Source: Girardia tigrina (lineage: Eukaryota). From it: a DNA stretch of 56,286 nt. The notes under the pieces are model-generated. The model saw nothing but the letters and a program-made list of their open reading frames with translations. It had not been told where the DNA came from and ran no database searches. How positions within the stretch are numbered: the first letter of the stretch is position 1; each line of letters opens with the position of its first letter. A program made the position numbers and the translations under genes. Of this stretch, positions 1,945 to 55,975 are shown one piece after another. The DNA lies in NCBI GenBank assembly GCA_001938485.1, contig MQRK01216833.1, positions 1 to 56,286 on the forward strand, written 5' to 3'.

Positions 1945-2551
1945 TTAGATTAAGGAATATGTTCCCGCCGTTTTTTGAATTTTTAATCAATTTTTAATCA
2001 ATTTTTAATCAGTTTAATATTTAAATCAAATTTTTGATGTAATGTTATATGTTATTTGAAAGCTATTGTTTTGCTCTAAAAATGGTGTATTTTGTTTTTT
2101 TATTCAGATTAATTTTTGTCGATTTTTAGACCATTGAAATGGAGTGTCAAGTCGACTACCTGGCGTTATTTTGCAACACGACAGTGCACGTCCTCATATT
2201 GCCAGAATGACAAAAGAAGCAATTCAAACACTTGGTTGGGAAGTGTTACCGCATCCTCCGTATTCACCTGACTTGGCTCCATCTGATTTTCATCTTTTCC
2301 GTTCGCTTTCTAACGCTTTGCGTGGTGTTTCGTTCAACAATGATGGAGAACTGCAAGTTTGGTTGGATGAATTCTTCGAGTCAAGACCGGGCGATTTCTA
2401 CCAAAGAGGCATTGAAAAACTCGTTGAACGTTGGGACGAAGTCGTGAACAATGGCGGAGATTATATTTGTGATTAATTTGTAGTAAATTTTTTGTTAAAA
2501 AATAAAATTTTAATTTTTCAAAAAACGTCGGGAACTTATTCCTCAACCCAA
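1945..2551 (+). mobile_element. Internally deleted mariner (DD34D), 607 bp
   Basis: TIRs TTAGATTAAGGAATATGTTCCCGCCGTTTTTT and rc TTGGGTTGAGGAATAAGTTCCCGACGTTTTTT. TA target duplications at 1943-44 and 2552-53. Confidence 0.93.
2139..2476 (+). pseudogene. Mariner transposase: N-terminal MECQVD fused out of frame to the C-terminal catalytic half
   Basis: ATG at 2139. ORF 2144-2476 contains HDSARPH and YSPDLAPSDFHLF, with exactly 34 residues between the 2nd and 3rd catalytic D. The HTH and first D are deleted. Confidence 0.92.
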
Positions 2552-9010: not shown

Positions 9011-11615
9011 CACTATTTCTACCGACACTTCACGTATACCCCTACTGCGGCTGGTCAAATGACCGGTCTTTCACAACTTATATTTTTCAATATTGAATGC
9101 AGACCAATAGCTAGCTTACCAGTATAAAAATATATTTTCTTTTTTTCAAGAGTACATAAACTACATTTTATTATTTTTCGTCGCACTTTTTACAAAATGG
9201 GCTGCTCAACTGTACATTTTCCGCATACGTACTTTTTACATTTTATACAGATTTTATTCGCCATATTATCTCTACAATACCTTATCTGACATGTTTTCCG
9301 TTCACGGGAAAAGGTACTTGTACTTGCGATGGGTATTGGTTATTTTTTTTGCCTATCTCTTGGTGGTACTCGATGGCAAGTTCTTCTGCCAATTGGAATA
9401 GAAATTCCTGTCTTGTAATTTCTCCTCCCGTAGTTTCTTTATATAACACCCATGCATTTATCCCGGCTAAATCCAAAATATTAAAAAAATACTTGCAAAT
9501 GCCATCTCCGTGATTTAAATTTTACCGAATAATTTCAGGCCATTTGGCCAGTCACATCTACGCCCAATTTGGTGCTATTATACAACTGAATTGTCTCCGG
9601 TGTTCGGGTGTCATTTTCTTCAACTTGTACGGAATTGTGCATTGAACTGAGAATTAGAACTTTCTTTCTTGGTTTGGCTTTGTAAACTGTCAACATAATT
9701 ATTTGAGCGATACAGTTTGGTTGAAAAAAGGGCCATGTCGTCGTTTTTCAGTTTTGCCAGTTTTGGTAGTTCTTTTCTATTTGCTCTAATTGTCCCAACA
9801 ATCGTAGTTTTTTTTACTAAAAGTTTTGTTGCTAAAGGTAGGCTTGTAAAAATGTTGTCCGTGGTTATATTTCTTCCAGATTCTACATGCGATTTTGCTA
9901 ATTTCATAGTGACAAACTCTCCAAGAGGAACTTAGGCTTCTCTACTTTCATCTTTCCCAAATATGGAAAGCAGTTTATTATATATTTGATACGTACATCG
10001 GATGCTAACCAGAATTTTAAACCAAATTTGTCCGGTTTATTGGACATGTATTGAGTAAATCTACACCTTGCTTTCGTTTGAAACAATTTTTCGTCAATAG
10101 TAATATATGGCCCTGGTTTATAAAAATTTTGACTGTTATTTTAGCGAATTTATCGGTTTGTAAGCGTTGGCCTCGCGGATTTCTGTCTTCAAATTGAATA
10201 AATCTCATAATCTCAGTAAAGTCATGTCTACTCATAGTACTTGAGAAAAAAAGCGAGCCCCACTTTTTATTCCATAGAAGTGCTATATCTATATTCTTAG
10301 CCTCATATGCGCCGCGTGCATACAAAATTGCAAAAAAATGCATATAACTTTGCAGTAGACAATTCCCATTTATATCCCAACACTCTAAATGCCTCTGTCT
10401 CTGTGCACTTTCTTATAAGTTCGATTACATTTTTATCAATTATCACAGAATAACTTCGCCTTTCATAATATTACGTTTACTATACCCAGTCGGGGCTGAT
10501 GTTTCCCAAAAATATTATGACTAAGTGTTCTTCCAGGATTAGACCCTGTTTTACTTCCTGCCAAACAGTTCCGTCCATCGCAATTTCTCTTAGCTCTTCG
10601 TCATTCTCACTATCGGAACTAACTAAAACTCTCCTTCTCTTTCGTCGTCTACATACGTTCGAAATATTTTCTTCATTCTCATCGGAGTTCGAGTCGGTTT
10701 CAAGTGGAGCATAATTTTCCGTATTGTCGATTTCAATATCCAGAATTTCTTGATCATCTTCAGAACATTATGCATTGATATCATTTATTTTCTCTAATAA
10801 TACATTCGCACTCCTCAAACGTCTTGACATTTTGGGGACAAATATTCAACGGAAAAAATAAAAACCAAAATATGAAAATGTAAATCAATATAGATAAAAA
10901 AATCAATAAAAATCAAATGTGAAACATACAGTGACGTATTATTAGTCTTGTTCACTATTTTGAAAATGACACTTACAACACGTAATACAATATAAAATAT
11001 TATAAAATAATAATAATAAAAGACTGCCAAGTATCCTCTTTGTGACTTTCATGTTTCGATGCACTCTGCTCGTGTTACAAGACTCTACTGATTTGAATTC
11101 GTGAAAAGACGTCAATATATTTTTTTCAGTTATGAGTTCATTTCTTTTCCATCATAGTAGATAAGATTGCGTGAGAAAATTCGAGGAAGTGGACCGTATC
11201 AGATCAATCAAGCAAATAAACACCTCTAGCCCGATAGTCGAGCGAAAACTGCAAACACTTTGAAGTACCGTAAACCATTTTCTGGAAGGCACTTATAGGA
11301 TAAAATCATGCCACAACTACATTACCTTTCATTTGTAACGAATTTATAGTTTTTGCATTGAGACTTAGAGAAAAACTATTACAAAAAAGTATAAATCGTA
11401 CCACCGGTCAAATGACCGGTCGTGGTAGATAAGACAGACTACAAATTTTTCTCAGAAAATAAACAATAAAAAAATAAGTGAATATTGAAAAATGTATCAT
11501 ACATATATATGAGGAAAAGTCATAAAGTTTAAAGGTGATTCGCTTACGTTCAATGTAGGAAGTTCCAATGGAAAATTTGAAAAAGGTCATTTGAACGGTC
11601 CCGGTAGGAATAGTG
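9011..11615 (-). mobile_element. Full-length decayed piggyBac (2.6 kb)
   Basis: TTAA at 9007-10 and 11616-19. TIR CACTATT(T/C)CTACCG. Subterminal palindrome GGTCAAATGACC at 9053 and 11406, with a variant at 11585. Confidence 0.95.
9170..10830 (-). pseudogene. piggyBac transposase (PGBD4-like), multiple frameshifts and stops
   Basis: ATG at 10830 (MSRRLRS..). Motifs DGTVW, STMSRHDFTEIMRF, CRFTQYMSNKPDKFGLKFW, GRNITTDNIFTS, TIVGTIRANRKELP, DLAGINAWVLY, and a C-terminal Cys-rich finger KTCQIRYC..CIKCKKYVCGKC. Confidence 0.95.
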
Positions 11616-18800: not shown

Positions 18801-21800
18801 TTAACATGAAATTGAAATAGAAATTTGACATCCAAAGGAAAATATTAATTAAAGAAAATCTAAGATTTTTTTGTGATAAATCGATAAAATGAGGCAGAAT
18901 TCATGAAGAAAAAATTATTAAAATTGCTGGAGTTTATGTATACAATAATGATAGATATCAATATTCGAGAATAGAGAAAGAAACCGATAAACGAAGACAA
19001 ACCGAATTAATAAACCCCAATGTAAATATTATTATTAATAGTAATATTACAATCATTTTTTTATATTTCATTATTTAATAGTAAAAATATTTAAAGAAAT
19101 AATTATTAATAATTTAATAATAATAATAAAAATTCTATAAAAAATATAAATAAATAATAATTCTAATTAGAAATTATAAAAAATGATTTTTTTGTTTTAA
19201 TAATCATTATTATTTATATTTTTATAATCTTAAGTTATCAATTTTATGGTTCATTAATTTGTACAATAAAAATGGTTGTAAAAAGAAAATTTTTATAATT
19301 GAAAATATTTAATTAAAAACTAAAAAAAATAAGTTTCTACAAGCAACCCGTTTTTTTTCTTAGTTTTCAACAAAAAAAATTGTTTTTTTTTAATAAAATT
19401 GTTTACCAATGAAATACAATTTGAATAATAAAATCTAAATTTTTTTGTGATTTTTCTTATAAAAATTTCAATTGTATGTATGGAGGAATAGTGAGCGATT
19501 TAGAATTTTTCGAATTGAACATATGAAAAGCTAGAGAGTGGAAAGAAGGGAACAACATGTAATTGTGATGTATTATTCGATTTTTTCTTTTTTTGCAACA
19601 AACCAGTCTACACGGCTTAATACGATAATTTTTTCTGGCTTAAAAATTGTTATTTCAAAATGTTGTATTCTTGTAATTTTGCTATTTAAGTTTTTTTTTC
19701 TGCATAAGAAAATTACGATGCCAAAAAATGGTGGAAGAAATTCCAAGAAATAATGAACTGTTCTCATCTAATTTTAGCATTCCATTAGCCATTCAAGTAC
19801 TTTTACATGCGAATCGTTTTCCGAATATTTAGAATTTTATATTTTTTTATTATATATCAATATAAAGACAAGTTATACGCAAAAAATATTTTATATTAAT
19901 ATATTTTTATAATATATATACATATGTAAATATATATGCATATATGTATCAGAAAAAGAAAAATAAATTTTAGAAAAATAAACGAAATTTTTTTCAGTTT
20001 TTTTTATAAAATTTTTAATATTAGAAGAAATTCATAAATTCAAAACACGAACTTTTTTTCTCTATTTAAAAGTTGAAAAAAATGTTTTTTTTTCTTTTAA
20101 ACTTGGCATTATATATATTATTAATTTTCTTATTACTGGTATTATCATTATTATTATTTATTATTATCGATAATAATTTAAAAAATCATTCATATATACA
20201 AAAAAATAATTTAATTATATAGATAAACTAACGATGTCTCAATTTAACTAAAAAGTAATTTATTATCTGACTTGATTTTTAATTACGTTTTTTTTATTCT
20301 AATTATTCTTTTATTCTACAAAAAAACTTTTTCTTCTTAAATACGAGAATAACAACTGTTTTGTTTTTCAAACCACAGCTGTAGCACAAAAATAATTTTT
20401 TTATATTTCTGGAACGTTTTTTTTCTCCTTTTCAGCAGTTAAAATTTTTCGATTAAAACAAAAATAAATAAATAAATCTTAGAATAGGAAAAAGAAAGAT
20501 TATTGGGTAAAAAATGGAAATATTTATTAATATGGATTGATGAAGTTAATATTATTTGGAATTTGATAAATTAAAACAGTATGAGACAATTAATAAACAC
20601 TTTACGCATGAATAATTTTTTTTTAAAAAAAATAAAATAATCAGAAAAAAATATTTATTTTTGTAATTTCTTTTTTTTGCTTTTTGATATATATTTTTTG
20701 GGTTTTTCTTTAAATTTCTTTTGTTTGTAATTAGTTTTTTTAGGTGTTTTCAGAGAATTAGACTAAAACTAGTTTGTGTGTTGCAATAAATTGTTTGGAA
20801 AACATTTTTTTTGGAATTGTCTTTAAATTTATGTTCTGTCCTTTAACAAATCCATAAAAAATCTATTTCCTATGAATAATTTCCTTTTTTAAATATTATT
20901 TTAGACATTTGTGTTATTAGTATTTCTTTATTGATTTTTTTTTAATTTATTTATTTTCTTAATTAATTAATTATTCATGTTTATATATTTTTTTGAAAAG
21001 TAATTTTAATAAAGCTTTTTTAAGAAATTATTTATTGAAAATGTTTTGGAACTTCATTTTCAATCGTCATCAAGTATTGTGTAATGTGTAAGATAATTAA
21101 TAATTAATTAATTAATTAATAAAATGTTAATTATACTGAGATTTTATCTGTAAATATTATTTGTTTAGGATTTTATTGAATATTTATGGCAAAAAGTTTT
21201 TATTTATTTTAATTAAAGATTTTAGGGACCAAAGGAAAAAAATATTGAAAAGCACAAACAAATACTCAAAATACCAGAGTATTTGCAAGAATATATATAT
21301 ATATTGTCAAAGTGCTCTTAATAAAGTTCAAAGGAATTCGTTTAAAAATTTAATTGATATTGGTGTAAAAACTCGTAAATTGGAGAGACAAATCGACATC
21401 TCAAAATCAGGATTAGTGAGCATTCACAATCAAGTCGATTAAGTAAGGTTCTTGATTTTTGGAACCCTTGTAGAAATAGAATCTCTTCTATTTCAAAGGA
21501 TGTGTTTTCTGTTTTACTGAAGGGTTTCAATTCACATTAAGAGTCACAGTTCTGTGAATCATTATTGATAGAACATTATATGTTGTTAATAAACATTCAA
21601 AATGGGCAAACTAAGACCGTCACAATTTTTAAATCCTAAATTAAAATAAGCTTTAAAAAATTGCTATTAATATCCAAAAAAATGTAAAAAAAAATTATAT
21701 TTACGGATAAAATCTCAGAATAATTAGCATTTTATTATTTTGCACATTACATTATAATTGATGAAGATGGAAAATGAAGTTCCAAAACATTTTCAATAAT

Positions 21801-24332: not shown

Positions 24333-25783
24333 AGGTGTGTCCACTAAAAACGTGCACAAGTTTTAAAACCATCATAACTTTTTAATTAGACCTTCAAATT
24401 GACGGAAATCTGAACAAAGACTAGATCATAATAACACAATAACTATTTTATTATATCGACTATTAAGGCCATAAGAGTTAGCAAGCATTATTCTTTGTCT
24501 AAAATTTGCAAATAATGTCCTAAAATATAAATTGTTAAACTGCTTTGCTTTAGTTTTGATTCTGCGAATCAACAGGTCTTCAGAATCAGCAGTCCAACCC
24601 TTTTCATACACCTTCTTCTTTAAATGAGCCCAAAACTTTTCAATTGGGCGTATTTGGGGAGCACAAGGTGGATTCGAATCTGTTTTGACAAATGGAATTT
24701 TGTTGTTCTCTAAGCACTTCAGACTTGCTTTGGCGTAGTGACAAGAAGCAAGATCTGGCCAGAAGATGAAGTGACCAGCTGGGTATTTCTCATTCAGATA
24801 AGGAAGCAAACGCTTCGTTAAGCACTCGGAGATATAAATATCCGAATTAGAAGCTACAGATTTCCGTTTCCTGATGTACAGGTTTGAAATGCCTCGTCTG
24901 GAAACAGTTGCCCAAACCAAAACTTTTACTGTGAATTTCTCTCGAAATTTAAGGCGAATATTATCAGGAACATCACCAAACTTCTTTTGGTCCACATAAT
25001 AACCCGATGTCATTGCTCCGGTGAGTGTAAAATACGATTCATTATCAAGTACAAAGTCGGTTTTGGTCTTTTCCACAACAATTTTAGAGAGATTTTGCAA
25101 CCTGGCTTTCTGGCGAATAATCTGTGTCGAAGTAACCTTTGGGGCTTCTTTACTCTTTCGAAACACTATGTTATTAGTCTTGAGCATCTTATGCATGTAA
25201 GACTTTGAAACATTCATTTCTCTAACTAACTTTCGCACATTTTGTCCAACAGTCAAAGTTGCACGCTGCAGAAGTCTCTTCCTTTTGTCTGACGTCATTT
25301 TAACAGGTTGCCTTCTACCTCCTAATTTTCTTTCAATGCTGCCGGTCTTCTCATAGCGTTGTATTATTGCATATATACCTCTTCTGGAAAAATGAATGCC
25401 AGTAAACTTTGTCACAGTCTCACTTTTACTGTGCGTTTTGAAAAAATTGATTATATCTTCATGTCGTTTTGAAATCATTATAATTGTCTCTAAAATAAAA
25501 CATTCGTGGCGTTTTTGTCGTAGATCCCATCATTTCTTTGATAAGCAAAACTATAGACATAATCTTTATAATAAACACAAAGACATGCTTCCAATATCCT
25601 ATAAGAAATAAAAACCTTCCAATAAATGTATTTGAAGAGATTTCTTTGATTAAACCAAAAATTTTAAATACCTGCTTTATTATTTCTAACCTATTAAAAC
25701 AAATATTTAAATTCCAAATTTACGAAATTAAATAATATTACATTAAAAAGTTATGATGGTTCACTTTTTTAGTGGGCACACCT
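24333..25783 (-). mobile_element. DD37E (ITmD37E-type) transposon, full length
   Basis: TIRs AGGTGTG(T/C)CCACTAAAAA(C/A)GTG..AACCATCATAACTTTTTAAT, with the right copy lacking 12 nt. TA flanks at 24331-32 and 25784-85. Confidence 0.92.
24426..25478 (-). CDS. DD37E transposase, 350 aa, uninterrupted ORF; first catalytic Asp appears to be Asn
   Basis: True ATG and N-terminal HTHs. Motifs FVLDNESYF, FWPDLASCHY and NPPCAPQIRPIEKFWAHLKKKVY, with 37 residues counted between D (WPD) and E (PIE). Confidence 0.92.
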   Translation of the reverse strand: MISKRHEDIINFFKTHSKSETVTKFTGIHFSRRGIYAIIQRYEKTGSIERKLGGRRQPVKMTSDKRKRLLQRATLTVGQNVRKLVREMNVSKSYMHKMLKTNNIVFRKSKEAPKVTSTQIIRQKARLQNLSKIVVEKTKTDFVLDNESYFTLTGAMTSGYYVDQKKFGDVPDNIRLKFREKFTVKVLVWATVSRRGISNLYIRKRKSVASNSDIYISECLTKRLLPYLNEKYPAGHFIFWPDLASCHYAKASLKCLENNKIPFVKTDSNPPCAPQIRPIEKFWAHLKKKVYEKGWTADSEDLLIRRIKTKAKQFNNLYFRTLFANFRQRIMLANSYGLNSRYNKIVIVLL

Positions 25784-29484: not shown

Positions 29485-29969
29485 TGTGATCCTCTCACAC
29501 GGCTTAGAATACAAGAGTGTGAGCTTTCAATGTGTTGGCACGCTTCGGCTTCTTTCAAAGAAATGACCAGTCATATTTCTTCCTTCCGTGATACTGAAGT
29601 CTTTTGACTGTATAAACGCACTTATTATAACGGGGAAATGGGCAGTTAAACACCCCCCTTTTCATTTTATTATCCAACCGAAAACTCAGTACCACACTAG
29701 AGATTACTCCTGGATAGTCCACATCAGTTACACCGACAGACACTGACATATCATGTTCAGCGTTCAAGTTCAAATGTTCAGTGCGTATCTCTGTTTCTAC
29801 TCTTTGTACTGCATATGTGTTTGTATTACGATTAACTTGGATTCGATTATCAATTAATAGATGACGTTGTAGCCATACAACAGTTTTTTAAGTTTCGTGG
29901 CAGTTCTCTCTGGGACATATGAATGAACCACCACCTCTCTGTGTTGTCAGCACCGTGGCCAGAGGCACA
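29485..29969. mobile_element. Putative solo LTR (485 bp)
   Basis: Inverted termini TGTGATCCTCT and AGAGGCACA. Flanks TTTTT / TTCTT (4/5, low complexity). Sharp GC rise relative to the flanks and a TATAAA at 29611. Confidence 0.5.
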
Positions 29970-35633: not shown

Positions 35634-38570
35634 ATGAGTAAACAGAAAAGGCTGTTAGATTTATGGGTTAGTTCTAACTTAAAGCGAAAGAAGTGTGAGC
35701 TCGACGTATCTCAAGACTGTAGTGTTAAGGCTAACGAAGACTCTACATCTGATATAAATTGTGTAGTAATTGCTGAAGATGCATTGGATGCTGTACCTGA
35801 ACTCAATTCTCAACAAACATGTAAGATAGTTAGTTCTGATGGACCCAATCAGCCAATGGACTTTATCTTTACTAAACGCGATTTTCCAGGTTGTGGGAAG
35901 CGATCTGCACAATTGTCCTGGTTCAACACTTGGAAGTGGCTGGATTATGATCCAAGCTCGAATACAATGAGATGCTATTTTTGTGTTCATGCGGAAAATA
36001 AACATTTGTTAACGTTTTCAAAACACAAGAAGCTTGCATTCCTACATGACGGCTTCTGCAATTGAAAGAAAGCCACCTAAATGTTTGCTGAGCATTAAAG
36101 CTGCGGACAGCACAAGGAAGCAACTATGAAATTGTCAATGTAGGCTAAGGCATCCGTAATGGAACAACTCAACGCAGAATGTCGTAAAAATCAAGATGAT
36201 GCCAGAATCGCTCTACATGCAATTTTTACCTCTCTACGCTTTTTAGCAAGACAAGGAATTGATGTGCAAGGTCATTTGCTCGACGATGGCAATTTTATGC
36301 AACTGTTCAAGATGCACACGGCGTAGATACCAACACTTGAACATGGATTGAAAGGAAAAACAACTGGATGTCAGACGCATACCAAAATGAGATTCTACAA
36401 ATGTTTGCGCATGAAATCCAGCGTCAATTAGGAAATGAAATTCGACAATGCAAATGGTTCAGCTTGATATCGGACGGCACAACAGATTGTGACGGAAGGG
36501 AACAGTTGTCAATATCTTTCCGACATGTTGATGATAATTTTGTAATTCGCGAAACATTTGTGGGATTTTATTGCCCTTCAGATAATACTAGCGACACTCT
36601 GTCAACTTGTCTTATTGCCACAATGATTCGACTTGGATTGTCTATGGAAGATTTGAGAGGATAGTGCTACGATGAGGGAGCAAATATGACTGGAGTCAAT
36701 CACAGAGAGCAAGCAATTATTAAAAGTCGATAACCTAAAGCAATATTCGTGCATTGCACCAATCATCTCTATTTTGAACATTTAATCACGTCCCGTTTGA
36801 ATTTTTATTGCAATCACATTTAGAGTCATTATGACTCTCAGAAAGTCTTTCATCGTTTGTCATCCTTCTAATTGGTTTTCTTATTTCTGTTTTTAATGAT
36901 GATTATTCGAACAATTTTTTCTAAGTTATTTTTTAAAATATATAACCTCTAAAAAATATTAATTAAAAAATAATATTTTTTACAATTTCTCAATAAATCC
37001 CAAAATAATAAAAATGACATCAAATTATTAAAAATGCATTTAATTTAAATTTTACTAAAAAATATTAAACTTAATTTTAATTGTGAAATATTGTTCGAAT
37101 AGTCAATTAAATTTAAATAAAAAATACCAATTTCCATCTGGGTGGGAGAATCACCATTCTAAATTCAACATATTTAAATCAACATACAACATCCATACAT
37201 TTACACATTCAAACAATTTAAAATTTTCCTCAAAATCACCTTGATCTTGCTTTGCAAGAAACTGTTCGAGAGGTAAAGTCTATTAAAAATATCTGTCACT
37301 TGTTCGTGAGACTGTTAATTTGATCAAAGAATCAGCCAAACGTCAGTCATGCTTTTAGCGCATCTGTAACGACTTGGAAAAGGCGTCTGATGACGACTAT
37401 CGACACAGTAAATTAAGACAATTTGGTCCAACTAGACGGTGTGTTAGTGGAAGAGCTGTTACCTCTGTCTTAAAAAATTATGAAGCTGTGCTAAAGACTA
37501 TTGTTGCCATTAAAGATGATAAAACAAATCGATAGGAGATAAGATGCAAAGCTCGCGGAATTGCGAAAGAAATGAAGGGAATGAACACATATTTGCGCTT
37601 GCTCATTGCCAAAAGCCTATTTTTTCCTTGTAAAGAATTAGTCATATAGTCCAGTCAGATGACAGTTGTAGGCGCTGTGAAAAATGCAACTGTTTTAGCA
37701 AGATACTTACGGGGGCTTCAATCGGAAATTGAATTTGAAAAGTTAGCCAATATGGCTTAAGAAAAGGGAAAAAACTTGACCTGAAGTTGCCACAGAAGAG
37801 CAAAATGTCCAAGCCTCCTTTGAGGTACTTAACTAGTCCTATTAAAAAACTTGTCTTTTCGGTACATTAACACTACACCAATATTAATTTTCAGGCTTGA
37901 ATCGTCAGAATCACCTGCTCTTCCGGCTGTCTTTAATAAATGGGAAGACCAAGAGCGCAAAAACTTTTACGAGGCGATCGATCTACTAGTCAATGAACAT
38001 CGACGTCTTTTTGAACAAGAGGGAATAACAACAATCATGAATATGGAGAACCTTCTCATGACATCAGTTGCGAGAACATCGGTTGAACGTCAGTTGGAAG
38101 ATATTCCTGAGATTTATAAGACGGATTTTGATCGAACTTTACACTAATTTGTGTAAATGTTATGTTTATAAAACTTTATACGGTATTATTATTTCAAACA
38201 TCAGACTCCTCCTCCAGTTGAAGATGCTCCCTGACCTTTTAAAACAAGACCAGTGGATTGAAACTATTTTAGACCTTGCCTCATTTCTCAAAACGCAATC
38301 TGAGGCTTTCTTAAGTCTATTCTCAGATGTTGTAAAATTAATTCGTTTAATCCTTACGGTGCCAGCAACGTCAGCAACATCGGTGCGCTCATTTAGCGAA
38401 TTACGGCGATTAAAAACATGGTCACGATCTACAATGACCTAGAAGAGACTTACTCATCTTGCTATAGCTTACTTCCATCAGGACAAATTAGACAGTTTGG
38501 ATATTTCAATGCTGTGTAACGCATTTGCTAGTAAAACCCGAGAAAGGGAAAAAAACACTTGCGTGCTAAT
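35634..38570 (+). pseudogene. hAT transposase (TTF-type Zn finger, DUF4371-like core, dimerization domain), with stops, an insertion and a probable intron
   Basis: WKWLDY..RCYFC, LRFLARQG..GH..DGNF, FSLISDGTTD..EQLSISFRHV, LRG*CYDEGANMTG, VHCTNH|LDLALQE, GPTR and ILTVPATSATSVRSFSELRRLKTWSRSTMT*KRL. Confidence 0.93.
36766..37238. mobile_element. ~470-bp AT-rich insertion inside the hAT CxxH motif
   Basis: It separates VHCTNH from LDLALQE. Junction sequences AATCATCT (36761) and AATCACCT (37234) could be a TSD. Short inverted ends ATTTTGA and TCAAAAT. Confidence 0.65.
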
Positions 38571-45581: not shown

Positions 45582-46717
45582 TTAGGTTGTTCGATGTGAA
45601 ACGGGTCAAAATTAAAGTAAAATGTAAATCGATTTTTTTTAAATAATAACATTTTATTTTTAATCAAAATATCCCCCATGTTGTCAACACACTGTTGCCA
45701 TTTCAATGGTAACACATTTAACCCTTTAGTATAAAACACTGATTCACGAGAGTCAATGAATTGTTGAAAGGTCAAATTCTATGAAACGGGTCAAAATTAA
45801 AGTAAAATGTAAATCGATTTTTTTTAAATAATAACATTTTATTTTTAATCAAAATATCCCCCATGTTGTCAACACACTGTTGCCATTTCAATGGTAACNN
45901 NNNNNNNNNNNNNNNNNNNNNNNNNNNNNNNNNNNNNNNNNNNNNNNNNNNNNNNNNNNNNNNNNNNNNNNNNNNNNNNNNNNNNNNNNNNNNNNNNNNN
46001 NNNNNNNNNNNNNNNNNNNNNNNNNNNNNNNNNNNNNNNNNNNNNNNNNNNNNNNNNNNNNNNNNNNNNNNNNNNNNNNNNNNNNNNNNNNNNNNNNNNN
46101 NNNNNNNNNNNNNNNNNNNNNNNNNNNNNNNNNNNNNNNNNNNNNNNNNNNNNNNNNNNNNNNNNNNNNNNNNNNNNNNNNNNNNNNNNNNNNNNNNNNN
46201 NNNNNNNNNNNNNNNNNNNNNNNNNNNNNNNNNNNNNNNNNNNNNNNNNNNNNNNNNNNNNNNNNNNNNNNNNNNNNNNNNNNNNNNNNNNNNNNNNNNN
46301 NNNNNNNNNNNNNNNNNNNNNNNNNNNNNNNNNNNNNNNNNNNNNNNNNNNNNNNNNNNNNNNNNNNNNNNNNNNNNNNNNNNNNNNNNNNNNNNNNNNN
46401 NNNNNNNNNNNNNNNNNNNNNNNNNNNNNNNNNNNNNNNNNNNNNNNNNNNNNNNNNNNNNNNNNNNNNNNNNNNNNNNNNNNNNNNNNNNNNNNNNNNN
46501 NNNNNNNNNNNNNNNNNNNNNNNNNNNNNNNNNNNNNNNNNNNNNNNNNNNNNNNNNNNNNNNNNNNNNNNNNNNNNNNNNNNNNNNNNNNNNNNNNNNN
46601 NNNNNNNTATCTGTCAAGAAATACCTTATTTATTTTCATACGATAGTTCAAAGTTAAGTTATACGCGATTGAAATGTAAGGTGTGAAGTTTGACCCGTTT
46701 CATATCGAACAACCTAA
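45582..46717 (-). mobile_element. Mariner element, interior mostly gap
   Basis: 29-bp TIR TTAGGTTGTTCGAT(G/A)TGAAACGGGTCAAA, TA TSDs at 45580-81 and 46718-19, and C-terminal FYTKGLNVLPLKWQQCVDNMGD. Confidence 0.93.
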
Positions 46718-47235: not shown

Positions 47236-47751
47236 TTAATTTAAATTTGCATCTCGCCAGAATAATTTATTATTTTTTAACTTTAAAGGGTAAAATATTT
47301 TAATATTAATATGATTATTAAATATTTTAAAAATAAAAATGATATAGTAAAACAACTATTAAAAAATCAAATATGTATTTAAAAATAAAATATGTTTTTA
47401 ATGTGTTTTTTTAAATATTTTAAAAATTAAAAATGATATAATAAAAGAAAATCATAAAAAAATTAAATATATGTTTAAAAGTAAAAAATATCTTTTTAAT
47501 GTATCTATTAAATATTTTAAAATTAAAAATGATAAGAAAACCATTAAACATTAAATATTTATTTATAAATAAAAATATTTTTACAGGCATAACAATTTAT
47601 ATATTTTAATAGAAGTTATGAAACAATTTTAAATAAATTTTACAACAAATTTTTAGTTTTATGTGAAAATTATTTAATAAATTTGCAAGATTTTAAAAAT
47701 TGAATCGAAAAGAATTTAATAGATTAATTTGTGGCGAGATAATTAAATTAA
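47236..47751. mobile_element. Unclassified TIR element containing three ~93-bp AT-rich tandem units (47318-47585)
   Basis: TTAATTTAA..ATCTCGCCA at 47236-59 is inverted as TGGCGAGATAATTAAATTAA at 47732-51. Units begin TTAAATATTTTAAAA..AAAAATGATA at ~47318, ~47411 and ~47508. Confidence 0.55.
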
Positions 47752-48125
47752 CAGATAAATTTGTTTAAATATATGAATTGTTTTTGATTAATTTTGATGT
47801 TAAAAAAATGAATTCTGATATTGATGTTGCAACAACTTCTCCCAACCCTCATGTTCTTTATTCATTAATTTATCTATCGTCTCATTAGTTAGTTTCTCTA
47901 AAAATGATTTCGAATAGCCATTTTTCTGCAATAGTTATGTTAGATTATCTATGCGTGCATCTGCTTTTTCATATGTTGATGGCCAACTAAGGATTAAAAG
48001 TTATTTTGTTTTTTTTATTGTCATAATTTTATGTATTTGTATATGTATATATATATATTGAGTCTTGTGAACGCAAGTTTAGTATTTCGAAAATATAATT
48101 TGATTAAAGCTTTTTTTATACAACT

Positions 48126-48167
48126 ATTGGACATGTTTCGATGTTTATATACATCATCATCAGCAAT
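48126..48167 (-). ncRNA. Intact minimal type-I hammerhead ribozyme
   Basis: Minus strand: ATTG-CTGATGA-T-GATGT-ATATAA-ACATC-GAAA-CATG-TC-CAAT. 4-bp stem I, 5-bp stem II, full catalytic core, palindromic stem III (ACATGT) and a GUC cleavage triplet. Confidence 0.88.
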
Positions 48168-51100
48168 TTTCTATTGAATTGTTTGAATAATACAATTTTT
48201 CACAATTTTAATAAATATAATTTAGCTTAAAACAAATAAATTAAACATTTTTATTTATGAAAATATTATTGGGTAATAATGACATAGATATATTTTAATT
48301 AAAAATTTTAAGTATTGAAATAACCTTACTTTGCCCATTCTGAATGTTANNNNNNNNNNNNNNNNNNNNNNNNNNNNNNNNNNNNNNNNNNNNNNNNNNN
48401 NNNNNNNNNNNNNNNNNNNNNNNNNNNNNNNNNNNNNNNNNNNNNNNNNNNNNNNNNNNNTATATATATATAAACTTCAGTCGATATTTAATTTTATTGT
48501 ACATTTGAATTTTGATATATAAGAAATTTATAGTTTTATATTTAGTTGCGAGCATTTCTTTTATTTTTTATTAAAATTCAAAAACTAATTTGTGGTTTTA
48601 TTAAAAGTTAAAATTCAAAAACGGTTTTGTAAAAAGTCAGTTTTTGTAAAAACACTAATTAAATTTATTTATTTTTGTTAATGTTTGTATGTGACATAAA
48701 ATTGCATATGTCAATGATTTCCTCAGTGCATGACGTTAAATTTTATTAAATACATAATAGTAAACAACTAATTATAATAAAAAAATTAATTGTGGTTTAA
48801 TATAATTACTGTAATTACCATGATTCATGGAATAGTATCGTATTTCTTTTATTTTTTTGTAGAAAGATTATTTTATAACAATATAAAAGTAAAAAGAAGC
48901 ATTAAAATATTCATATATTATAGTATTTTTAATTATTGTATAGTCACATATAATGTATTAGTTTAAAACATTGTGTAGATTGATGGGATTTTTATCTTGA
49001 AAAATATTTATCAAAAAAATCTCGTCTTCTTTTTATTCCTTCTATATAGATTTGTATAAAGATTTTACTTTTTGATATATATATATATATATATATAATT
49101 GTAAAAATTATCATTGAGATTATTTTAAACCACCAGTAAACCTAGTTCATTGAAAATAAATCTAAGGGGTTCATAACATTTTGCAAGTTTTCCATTAACA
49201 TGTGTACCGGTCGAAAAACTCGATCTTTTTATTTAAAAAAATTCTCACTTGTTTACCATTGGGAAATAAATTTTTCATTGACTTATTTTTATTTTATTTT
49301 TAAAATATTATTTTCTCGTATTATTTCTTTTGTAATTATATTATTTATTAGACAACGTTTGGTTTATATTTTTTTCATGTGTTTCACAAAAAAAGAATTT
49401 CTTTTCTTTTAATTATCACATAATTAGCAGACTTAAAGTAGAAACAAATATATATTTAATATAGAAAACATAAAATGATAAGAAAAAATATCTCAATGCG
49501 GTAAGATAAATAAAATAAAAAAAATCGAAATTAAAATAACGGTAAATTATTATTATTATTGTTATTATTATTATTATTATTTCTAAATAAAAATATTTTA
49601 ATAATTACAAGTATAATAATTAATAATAAAAGTCAATTAATTTTATTTTTCTAGTAAAATTTTTATACGATTTTAATTTAATCAAATTATATATAATTCT
49701 TTTATTCAAAAGAAAATATTTATTAACATTAAATAAACTGTGTGATGTAGAATATTCGTTTTTAGTAAAAGAATTATTGAATCACAGTAAAAACAACTTT
49801 AAAAAAAATATTTTTATCAAAGTATATCAAATAAAAATGTTGAAAGATTTTCACCATTTGACATGTAATTGAAACAAAATATAGTTTCCCAGTTTTCAAA
49901 AAAAATTTTTGTTTGTTTTTACTTCTTTTTAATTAAAAAAATAAATTCTTTTCAATCTCTCTGAGTTGATTAAAAGTTGTAAAAATTATTTAAAATATTT
50001 CAAGTTATAAATATTTATTTTAATAAAACATAACCGTGTTGAAAGAATTTTAAGGAAAATGTGAAAAGATAAAGCATTCTATAGTCTAAAACATGAAAAG
50101 ACTTGGGTCTGTAAAACGAGAGTTCGTGTCACATTTCCTTTGTATATTTTATAATTTTTAAGGTGTTGTAGAAACTTTTTAATTAGGAATACTCATGAAA
50201 ATATGTTCTGTAAGAGATATGTTTTTATATAATACACATATTTTACTTTTTTTTCATTTGAGATGCTTTCGAAATAGAGATATTATAGGGTTAGTTATTA
50301 AGTAATTTGTCATGATAAAGCATACACGTAGTCATACAATTGAAAAATTAAGGACTGTTCCTATGTCCTAATAAAAGAAAAAGAAAATAAATAATAATAG
50401 AAAAAGTAAATAAATAATAGAGAATGAAATGAAAAAGGTACAATGAAAATAGAAAACCTTTCGGAAGAATTAGTAAGAAAATTTTGAAAAATTGATTAAA
50501 AAATAAGAAAACATTAATTCATTCCATTAATTCAGTGGAATCTTCTTGTATGTAACAATGAATCTTTCTGAAGTTTTAGCAAATTTTTAGTTATAAATGT
50601 TCTAATGTAGTTTTTTGAAGTACTTATTCTTCGTAAAGCTTTGGAAATTTATTGAGTTTAATAAATCCATTAAGGTTAAATTAAAAAATTTTAAATTTAC
50701 ACTGATGGATCCGTGATTTAGTATTTATTTATTTCAAATATAAATTTAAAACAATTTATTATATAATTTAATCAACCCACACTGGCTTCATGAGCTAGAA
50801 GAGAAACATATGGATGTCGCAGTCTAGTCTTTTAGTTTAGAAATGAGATAGAGTTTTTTTCAATTTACTTTCCAAACGAAATTTTCTAATGAAAAATAAA
50901 TAAGATTTTAATAGTTCTGTTTTCACAATGCGAATATTTAAATAAAATCTTTCTCCTTAAAATGTTTTTAGAATTATTTCAAAAAAAATTTTATTATTTT
51001 ATGAATTGATAAAATAATAAAATTAAATAAATAGAAATATTTTTTAAAAAGAAACAAAAATAAAAAAAATTTCGAAAAACAATGTTTATTTTTAAAAAGC

Positions 51101-55050: not shown

Positions 55051-55975
55051 TTGGGTTGGCCTAAAAGTCATTGCGTTTTTTACTAAAATATTTATTATCA
55101 ACAAATGACATGGATGCACAAATATTTTTACACGATATACTGTCCATTATTTTCAGTCACTTTCTTCCACCTTTCCGGTAGCTTCATTATTCATGATTCA
55201 TAAAAACCTTTGCCTTTGTCAGTAAAAAAGCCGTCTAGGAACGATTTGATGTCATCATCACTGGCGAATGTTTTTTTTCTGTTTAAGCAAATCTGCAGTG
55301 ATCTAAATAAGTGAAAATCCGATGGGGCCAAGTCTGGAGAATACGGTGGGTGCGGCAAAACCTCCCAACCCAGTGATAAGAGTTTCTGGCGAGTGGTCAA
55401 ACTTGTATGCGTTATTACAACTCCTTTTCGATTTGCCAATTCAGGACGTTCCTGTTGAATTGAATGAGCCAATTTCTCCAGCCGACCACAATATCTGTCT
55501 GAATTGATGGTTTCATTCCTCGGAAAGAGTTCAAAAAACACAATTCCTTTAAAATCCCACCAGATGGAAAGCATAACCTTCTTTTGGTGAATTTCTGCTT
55601 TTGGAATAGATTTGGCAGGCTCACCACGTTTTGTCCATGATCGTCGGCGTTCCGCATTAGATTTGATCAGTGCTGTTATTTTGTCGCCATCAAATTCAAC
55701 TGGTCGACCGGAGCGTGGCGCATAATTTTTCAGAACGAAATTTAGAAAACCAGTATTGACATTATCGAAGTTTTAAGGAGTCACTAGCATATACAAAACA
55801 TATCTTCTTATGAGCATGCACAGCGGTTTTCCCTTTGCGAAAATAATGCAACAAAACATGACGAATATGCTCATTTTGATTTTCCATTTTGAATTGACGG
55901 TAAAGTAATAAACTAAAACAAAATCAATTAATATTTTGTATAAACAGAGTCTGAAAATTAAGGTTTCAGAATATA
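55051..55975 (-). mobile_element. Mariner (mellifera-like), internally deleted, 5' end interrupted
   Basis: TIR TTGGGTTGGCCTAAAAGTCATTGCG at 55051. ATG at 55887 (MENQNEHIRHVLLHYFRKGK..PRSGRP), then KVMLSIWWDFKG and YSPDLAPSDFHLF. The first-D region and the HDNARP motif are deleted. Confidence 0.93.

Follow-up and report, generated by a model that had tools for sequence, protein, structure and literature searches.

The minimal hammerhead ribozyme at 48126–48167 on the minus strand of the window, by which we mean the whole 56-kb stretch analyzed here, very probably belongs to the pLTR and tail of a young, protein-coding Penelope-like element (PLE) family, in a copy that is truncated at its 5' end and inserted in (TA)n. 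The parent element is a new family of a kind already known (PMC4209133, PMC11167929, PMC3846280). Taken alone, the locus matters little, since it is one of roughly 11,000 core matches and belongs to a kind described in 2014. What the family adds is a start codon that probably lies inside the ribozyme itself and a nuclease gene that very probably serves as the target of another retrotransposon.

The ribozyme and its coding flanks

The features of the segment are as follows.

48461–48472, no strand: (TA)n past the N stretch, likely the far flank of the target or else where an inverted copy ends
48295–48348, minus: final 17 codons and stop codon of the PLE open reading frame (ORF), the GIY-YIG C-terminus, from the match to protein P0002
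48168–48294, minus: AT-rich untranslated spacer between ORF stop and ribozyme, about 80% identical between subfamilies
48126–48167, minus: whole hammerhead motif, from the sequence, as the sole descriptor match in the window, and from genomic copies
48167–48164 with 48129–48126, minus: stem I, 4 bp (AUUG with CAAU), from the sequence
48163–48157, minus: core CUGAUGA, from the sequence
48156, minus: extra U, unpaired between positions 9 and 10.1, from the sequence
48155–48151 with 48144–48140, minus: stem II, 5 bp with a 6-nt loop, from the sequence
48139–48136, minus: GAAA, from the sequence
48136–48131, minus: palindrome ACAUGU (stem III), from the sequence
48130, minus: C17, which puts the predicted cut at 48130/48129
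48132–48134, minus: likely PLE start AUG inside the stem III palindrome, from frame continuity in copies
48084–48134, minus: first 17 codons, to the short pLTR end, where 26 of 74 distinct copy ends stop
48057–48083, minus: optional PLE tail of about 27 nt (codons 18–26), present here and at 37 of the 74 copy ends
48046–48056, no strand: (TA)n at the 3' end of the element, likely the target site, from the sequence

Read from its sequence, 48167–48126 is a type I minimal hammerhead in which G48155 and C48140 form the G10.1–C11.1 pair. The core, stems I and II, the extra U and the ACAUGU stem III all stand as first described, and the position of C17 upholds the minus-strand cut that had been predicted between 48130 and 48129. 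The original prediction had also proposed a search with hammerhead models, and the outcome was divided. Our own descriptor, applied to both strands of the window, matched once, at this locus, while of 100 sequences simulated from the window with an order-2 Markov model, 3 held at least one match. Rfam returned no match over the whole window at gathering thresholds, and at E ≤ 10 on 451 bases it gave seven weak matches, none of them a hammerhead; this null result is no evidence against a minimal motif. Similarly, the global fold of the surrounding 101 nt was no stabler than that of shuffled sequences (z = 0.33). The argument that the motif is real comes from genome-wide evidence, namely the excess of the pattern over its control and the covariation of its stems.

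Coding sequence lies on both sides of the ribozyme, so the claim that none was visible nearby was wrong. Upstream, the minus-strand translation of 48348–48298 is identical at all 17 positions to residues 520–536 of P0002, its C-terminus. Downstream, an AUG within stem III (48134–48132, minus strand) opens 26 codons before (TA)n, and from comparison of sequences it is likely to be the start of the PLE ORF. In other copies the frame that begins at this AUG stays open for about 240 codons into the PLE N-terminus (L148), stays open across an N stretch up to the DKG motif (L145), or reaches the N-terminus with one stop (L130). The N-terminus is in register with those of full-length relatives, its residue 35 corresponding, for example, to residue 29 of P0014. 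The predicted cut site falls in codon 2, and the whole ribozyme lies upstream in 17 of the 40 copies that extend into the ORF.

The 3' end of the element occurs in two forms about 27 nt apart, both of which appear as loose ends running into (TA)n in public contigs. The 74 distinct copy ends, a sample biased by the choice of query, comprised 37 long, 26 short, 4 that ran on and 7 others. As had been noted before, (TA)n borders the segment; it does so at both 48046–48056 and 48461–48472. Three consecutive AUGs, out of frame with the main one, lie in the core and stem II (48160–48116, minus strand). They open an overlapping upstream ORF of 14 codons, a frame that is also seen in L027 and could dampen translation.

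A Penelope-like family and its copies

Several lines of evidence connect the ribozyme to a reverse transcriptase (RT) and a nuclease. The public protein P0002 (536 aa) carries both in one chain and is 93% identical to our L054 query. It matches Pfam RVT_1 (E 2e-11), and its nuclease motifs are VYKFNCHGC..YIGET..EH..DH. The Pfam GIY-YIG model came out slightly under its cutoff (E 0.001; score 19.7 against 22.6). Copies of the segment read on into VYKFNCHGC..YIGET, FDKGNG occurs in several loci, an RT with YVDD is linked to the endonuclease on one strand in L044, and the endonuclease is linked to the ribozyme in L012, L050 and L051. No single genomic locus with the whole intact ORF was seen; the linkage comes from overlapping loci together with P0002. 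The family thus has the layout of an endonuclease-bearing PLE, with a single ORF in which the RT precedes a C-terminal GIY-YIG endonuclease, and its pLTR has an ORF start inside, an optional tail and inverted, 5'-truncated copies. All of the sequence features of PLE minimal hammerheads that we examined are present (a CUGANGA/GAAA/NUH type I core, the extra nucleotide, the palindrome, covariation and location in a pLTR). The linked RT and endonuclease loci, the P0002 match and the ORF start therefore bear out the earlier view that the hammerhead marks a Penelope-like pLTR.

Within the PLEs, motifs rather than an RT tree place the element with Penelope/Poseidon, as judged from CCHH, DKG and a linker that appears to be without a zinc finger. 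According to the available text of PMC8557442, Penelope/Poseidon elements are without a CX2-5CxxC zinc finger in the RT–endonuclease linker, and Neptune and Nematis have it; by eye, the P0002 linker contains two isolated Cys and no CxxC. We also considered the Hydra clade, which is described as having (TA)n targets, no CCHH, DKT for DKG and a CxCX5C linker (PMC8557442). Here CCHH and DKG are present and CxCX5C is absent, which puts the element outside that clade as defined; only the (TA)n target is common to both. Elsewhere in the window are three older, broken Penelope-like nuclease fragments that are 42 to 52% identical to P0002 (47200–46715 and 41099–40464, minus; 21232–21633, plus). The first of them lies on the same strand as the ribozyme about 900 bp away, and its pLTR would run toward the N stretch at 45899–46607.

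A count of genomic copies, one of the checks first suggested, gave 11,083 matches to a pattern that combines the core and the palindrome, whereas the reversed control gave 3. Among 29 next-best genomic copies, 23 retain the core and both stems. Compensatory changes, on which the original prediction had staked itself, are present in stems I and II. In 36 distinct variants from fetched loci, the 10.2–11.2 pair is AU in 26, CG in 5, GC in 2 and unpaired in 3, and the 2.1–1.1 pair is GC in 23, AU in 5 and unpaired in 8. Most of these differences separate a few families from one another and do not count as independent events, and the G10.1–C11.1 pair and CAUG were imposed by the pattern. In a common subfamily (L016, L048, L131, L162, L166 and L168), stem II is a hairpin of a U-run and an A-run, a compensatory change from G-C to U-A. 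The genome also holds at least five other hammerhead families with different stems and ACAUGU, a palindrome that the pattern imposed (L153, L158, L159, L175, L176 and L018:390-511). Dimers across families are conceivable.

The motif at 48126–48167 is also intact, which is what one would expect if it had been domesticated to cleave a minus-strand transcript of the host here. We find that explanation scarcely credible: 18 of the 29 copies just mentioned are identical to it, so that intactness reflects youth and not selection, and inspection by eye of the window ORFs of at least 85 aa revealed no host gene near the site, although short exons could escape.

The segment 48060–48349 is a dispersed repeat with 496 candidates, and among the best 40, which were scored, the 39 others are 93 to 97% identical. 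All 29 of the other fetched copies have a common left end, placed at a TA-rich junction or just short of it; such a junction was seen at nearly all of the 27 copies inspected. Ungapped copies run rightward into the GIY-YIG frame, with 5' end points that vary; from the sequences, this combination of varied 5' ends and extension into the nuclease looks as it does in truncated retrocopies. The spacer upstream of the ribozyme occurs in several forms that are about 80% identical, while the ORF is about 97% identical.

The segment had first been taken for a solo, noncoding mini-element, a reading close to that of a nonautonomous retrozyme, in which tandem hammerhead monomers arise by way of circular RNA. 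Non-LTR retrozymes are noncoding tandem repeats with a type I hammerhead in each unit and have been proposed to derive from pLTRs (preprint 10.64898/2026.07.22.740005, in the portion available), and the ribozyme end is indeed far commoner than the ORF, with thousands of pattern matches against 276 candidates just past the tail. Nevertheless, either reading is very improbable given that the locus has no tandem array, that ORF sequence flanks the unit on both sides, and that the copies extend into the nuclease with the varied 5' ends of truncated retrocopies. With coding sequence on both sides and no array, the locus lies outside the definition of a non-LTR retrozyme. Instead, it is the 3' end of a member of a coding PLE family, truncated on its 5' side.

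Previous work on related systems provides a basis for comparison. Like the minimal hammerheads described for metazoan PLEs in the available parts of PMC4209133, the present motif is of type I with a helix I of 4 to 5 bp, has an unpaired nucleotide between 9 and 10.1 along with G10.1–C11.1, and has a palindrome made up of 15.2–16.2 and loop 3. In addition, both sets run to thousands of copies, mostly single and derived from truncated PLEs, and include opposite-strand pairs 100 to 700 bp apart (PMC4209133). The differences are that stem II has 5 bp here and 7 to 8 bp in Schistosoma (PMC4209133), and that the start codon lies inside stem III here, a feature that the same parts of that paper do not mention for minimal hammerheads. 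The Poseidon element of Anolis carolinensis, PAc, resembles the present element in its RT with a C-terminal GIY-YIG, in a hammerhead overlapping the beginning of the ORF and cleaving within coding sequence, in two 3' ends that define an optional tail, and in AT-rich targets (PMC11167929, sections available). However, the ORF of PAc begins at stem II and is cut 26 nt farther on, whereas here the AUG is in stem III and the cut in codon 2 (PMC11167929). In Pen2a_Av of Adineta vaga and related Penelope elements, the pLTR holds the first 12 aa, or 22 with the tail, compared with 17 and 26 here (PMC3846280, excerpts). Inverted 5' pLTRs are common in A. vaga as in the present family, but the A. vaga elements are low in copy number, (PMC3846280), while fragments of the present family number in the hundreds to thousands and mostly lie in (TA)n.

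Cleavage, insertion and the start codon

It had been proposed that this copy might still cut a minus-strand transcript, with minimal hammerheads generally needing to dimerize through the stem III palindrome. That such ribozymes require a partner or a helper agrees with the available text of PMC4209133, where a single minimal hammerhead showed no cleavage and dimers cleaved weakly; dimeric cleavage of PLE hammerheads is also the topic of Lunse et al. (RNA Biol), as summarized in part of PMC6765202. In our models, stem III of the monomer consists of 2 bp and a 2-nt loop and is rejected by the energy model. This rejection, together with the inactivity of single minimal hammerheads (PMC4209133) and the dependence of the Anolis Poseidon ribozyme on its protein (PMC11167929), suggests that a lone copy is most likely silent, and cleavage of a minus-strand transcript by it is unlikely. 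The dimer route gains no support from folding energies either, since the predicted minimum for the dimer lies at −18.4 kcal/mol, below the −10.2 kcal/mol of the double hammerhead formed through ACAUGU. Most likely, the lone copy is an inert fragment, open at most to cleavage in trans.

Whether the locus holds a lone copy depends on 48350–48460, a run of 111 Ns that hides the 5' junction of the visible copy. The original prediction had placed a second, same-strand ribozyme there, which would make the locus a self-cleaving tandem dimer. Partial tandems of PLEs exist (PMC8557442, in part), and the 84 nt or more that separate a ribozyme start from the end of the element would be enough for a minimal second end; yet the 111 Ns, if that is their true length, must also accommodate the remainder of the visible copy. 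Among fetched loci, same-strand pairs were seen at 3, two of which mix families or subfamilies, and inverted pairs at 7, whose motifs form no double hammerhead within one strand. At one locus (L028), a copy is simply truncated and has TA at either side. From these counts and from L028, the N stretch more likely hides an inverted copy or a plain truncation than a tandem copy, and we consider the tandem dimer improbable.

The visible copy extends 72 nt past the predicted cut site, which points to a template RNA that was likely uncut at the ribozyme; other copies of the family retain the tail past the cut as well and likewise probably came from uncut RNA. This would fit the behavior of PAc, whose ribozyme cuts only with the element's protein and is dispensable for insertion, with unprocessed RNA as the main substrate and reverse transcription starting at two sites inside the ORF start (PMC11167929, in the available sections). 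By analogy, the element's protein would nick AT-rich DNA, and reverse transcription would start inside the ORF start of a tandem-type transcript left uncut at the present ribozyme (PMC11167929), with an early halt in synthesis producing the 5' truncation. In full elements, cleavage would need either a ribozyme dimer or help from the element's protein. At the upstream pLTR it would sever the AUG from the ORF; at the downstream pLTR the RNA would lose its priming region. In one run declared as RNA (X5), contigs span the ribozyme and the ORF start, with DNA carry-over possible and neither ends nor strand visible; X9 placed none, and no intron-like joints were seen in the public contigs that cover these features.

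In the text available from PMC8557442, PLE hammerheads are said to have a role that is still unclear. Because a cut in codon 2 at the upstream pLTR would remove the AUG, we suggest, tentatively and as something we hold to be rather unlikely, that the stem III palindrome doubles as a start codon so that cleavage acts as a built-in translational off switch. Initiation by ribosomes within the palindrome would compete with folding of the ribozyme; the element's protein, by aiding RNA folding, would then promote a cut that strips the AUG and stops further translation. A sister family (L175) has a similar N-terminus behind the same palindrome. Among 21 5'-truncated copies of the ORF start (40 rows minus the 17 extending past the ribozyme and 2 at contig starts), 6 begin within −3 to +6 of the AUG (post hoc binomial p ≈ 0.005), but none of the 21 begins at the exact cut (+5). 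Furthermore, four of the six near-AUG copies include 4 to 8 nt of sequence 5' of the cut, and stalling of reverse transcriptase at stem II would explain the near-AUG starts as well. In a search that excluded most subscription journals, Repbase and supplements, we found no paper describing the AUG overlap in its present form. Having its AUG in stem III, this young family would make it simple to test whether translation of the element is under the control of cleavage.

A LINE in the nuclease gene and other residents of the window

At other loci the nuclease gene of this PLE family is itself interrupted. A LINE is joined to it at the YIG codons in 4 of the first 30 loci. When the query contained no PLE bases, 17 of 30 LINE ends lay at the YIG site (16 of 29 excluding the query's own locus), and with exact patterns applied genome-wide, 336 of 901 LINE 3' ends were at this site, alongside 985 empty targets. 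Both junctions are visible at seven loci (L012, L069, L076, L078, L082, L088 and L109), with inserts of 145, 231, 254, 383, 538, 610 and 1037 nt and short target duplications. The different lengths and the duplications point to independent insertions, though some of the 336 joined ends may have been spread by the PLE after one insertion. On this sequence evidence, an APE-type zinc-finger LINE very probably targets the nuclease gene of the present family. If so, one transposon would disable another, a case for which genome-wide counts now exist. Joined LINE ends also occur at L006, L007, L021 and others. Several insertions outside the target lie in sequence resembling it, and the same motif has been struck in diverged PLE families (L076/L107 and L095).

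The protein P0122, 96% identical to the LINE, has an APE-type endonuclease (PF14529), an RT and C-terminal C2H2-like fingers. The motifs of the LINE, which we take to be RTE-like, and its target, the Penelope nuclease gene, set it apart from target-specific elements of the Tx1 type, in which the pairing of Tx1L with Tx1D is a known non-LTR case. Like the present LINE, Tx1-clade and other target-specific non-LTR elements use one site of another mobile element (PMC4640811, in part). In the available text of that source, transposons are among the targets of target-specific non-LTR elements, including the Tx1 clade, and the main target-specific groups are only the early-branched, Tx1 and R1 groups (PMC4640811). 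A search with the same exclusions as above found no paper on a LINE that targets Penelope.

The remainder of the window is populated by remnants of other elements. Among its ORFs of at least 85 aa, those recognized by eye were transposon pieces only, at 24429–25529 (minus), 35634–38439 (plus), 2138–2473 (plus), 55194–55772 (minus) and 9623–10767 (minus); by eye, we presume them to be a Tc1-like transposase frame (367 codons), a hAT-like element, mariner fragments and a piggyBac-like fragment. A stretch at 29546–29689 (minus) weakly resembles the final zinc finger of P0122 (E 4e-4) and, from its sequence, is possibly an old LINE 3' end. Finally, an AT-rich tandem repeat with a 96-bp unit in 2.3 copies occupies 47316–47534.
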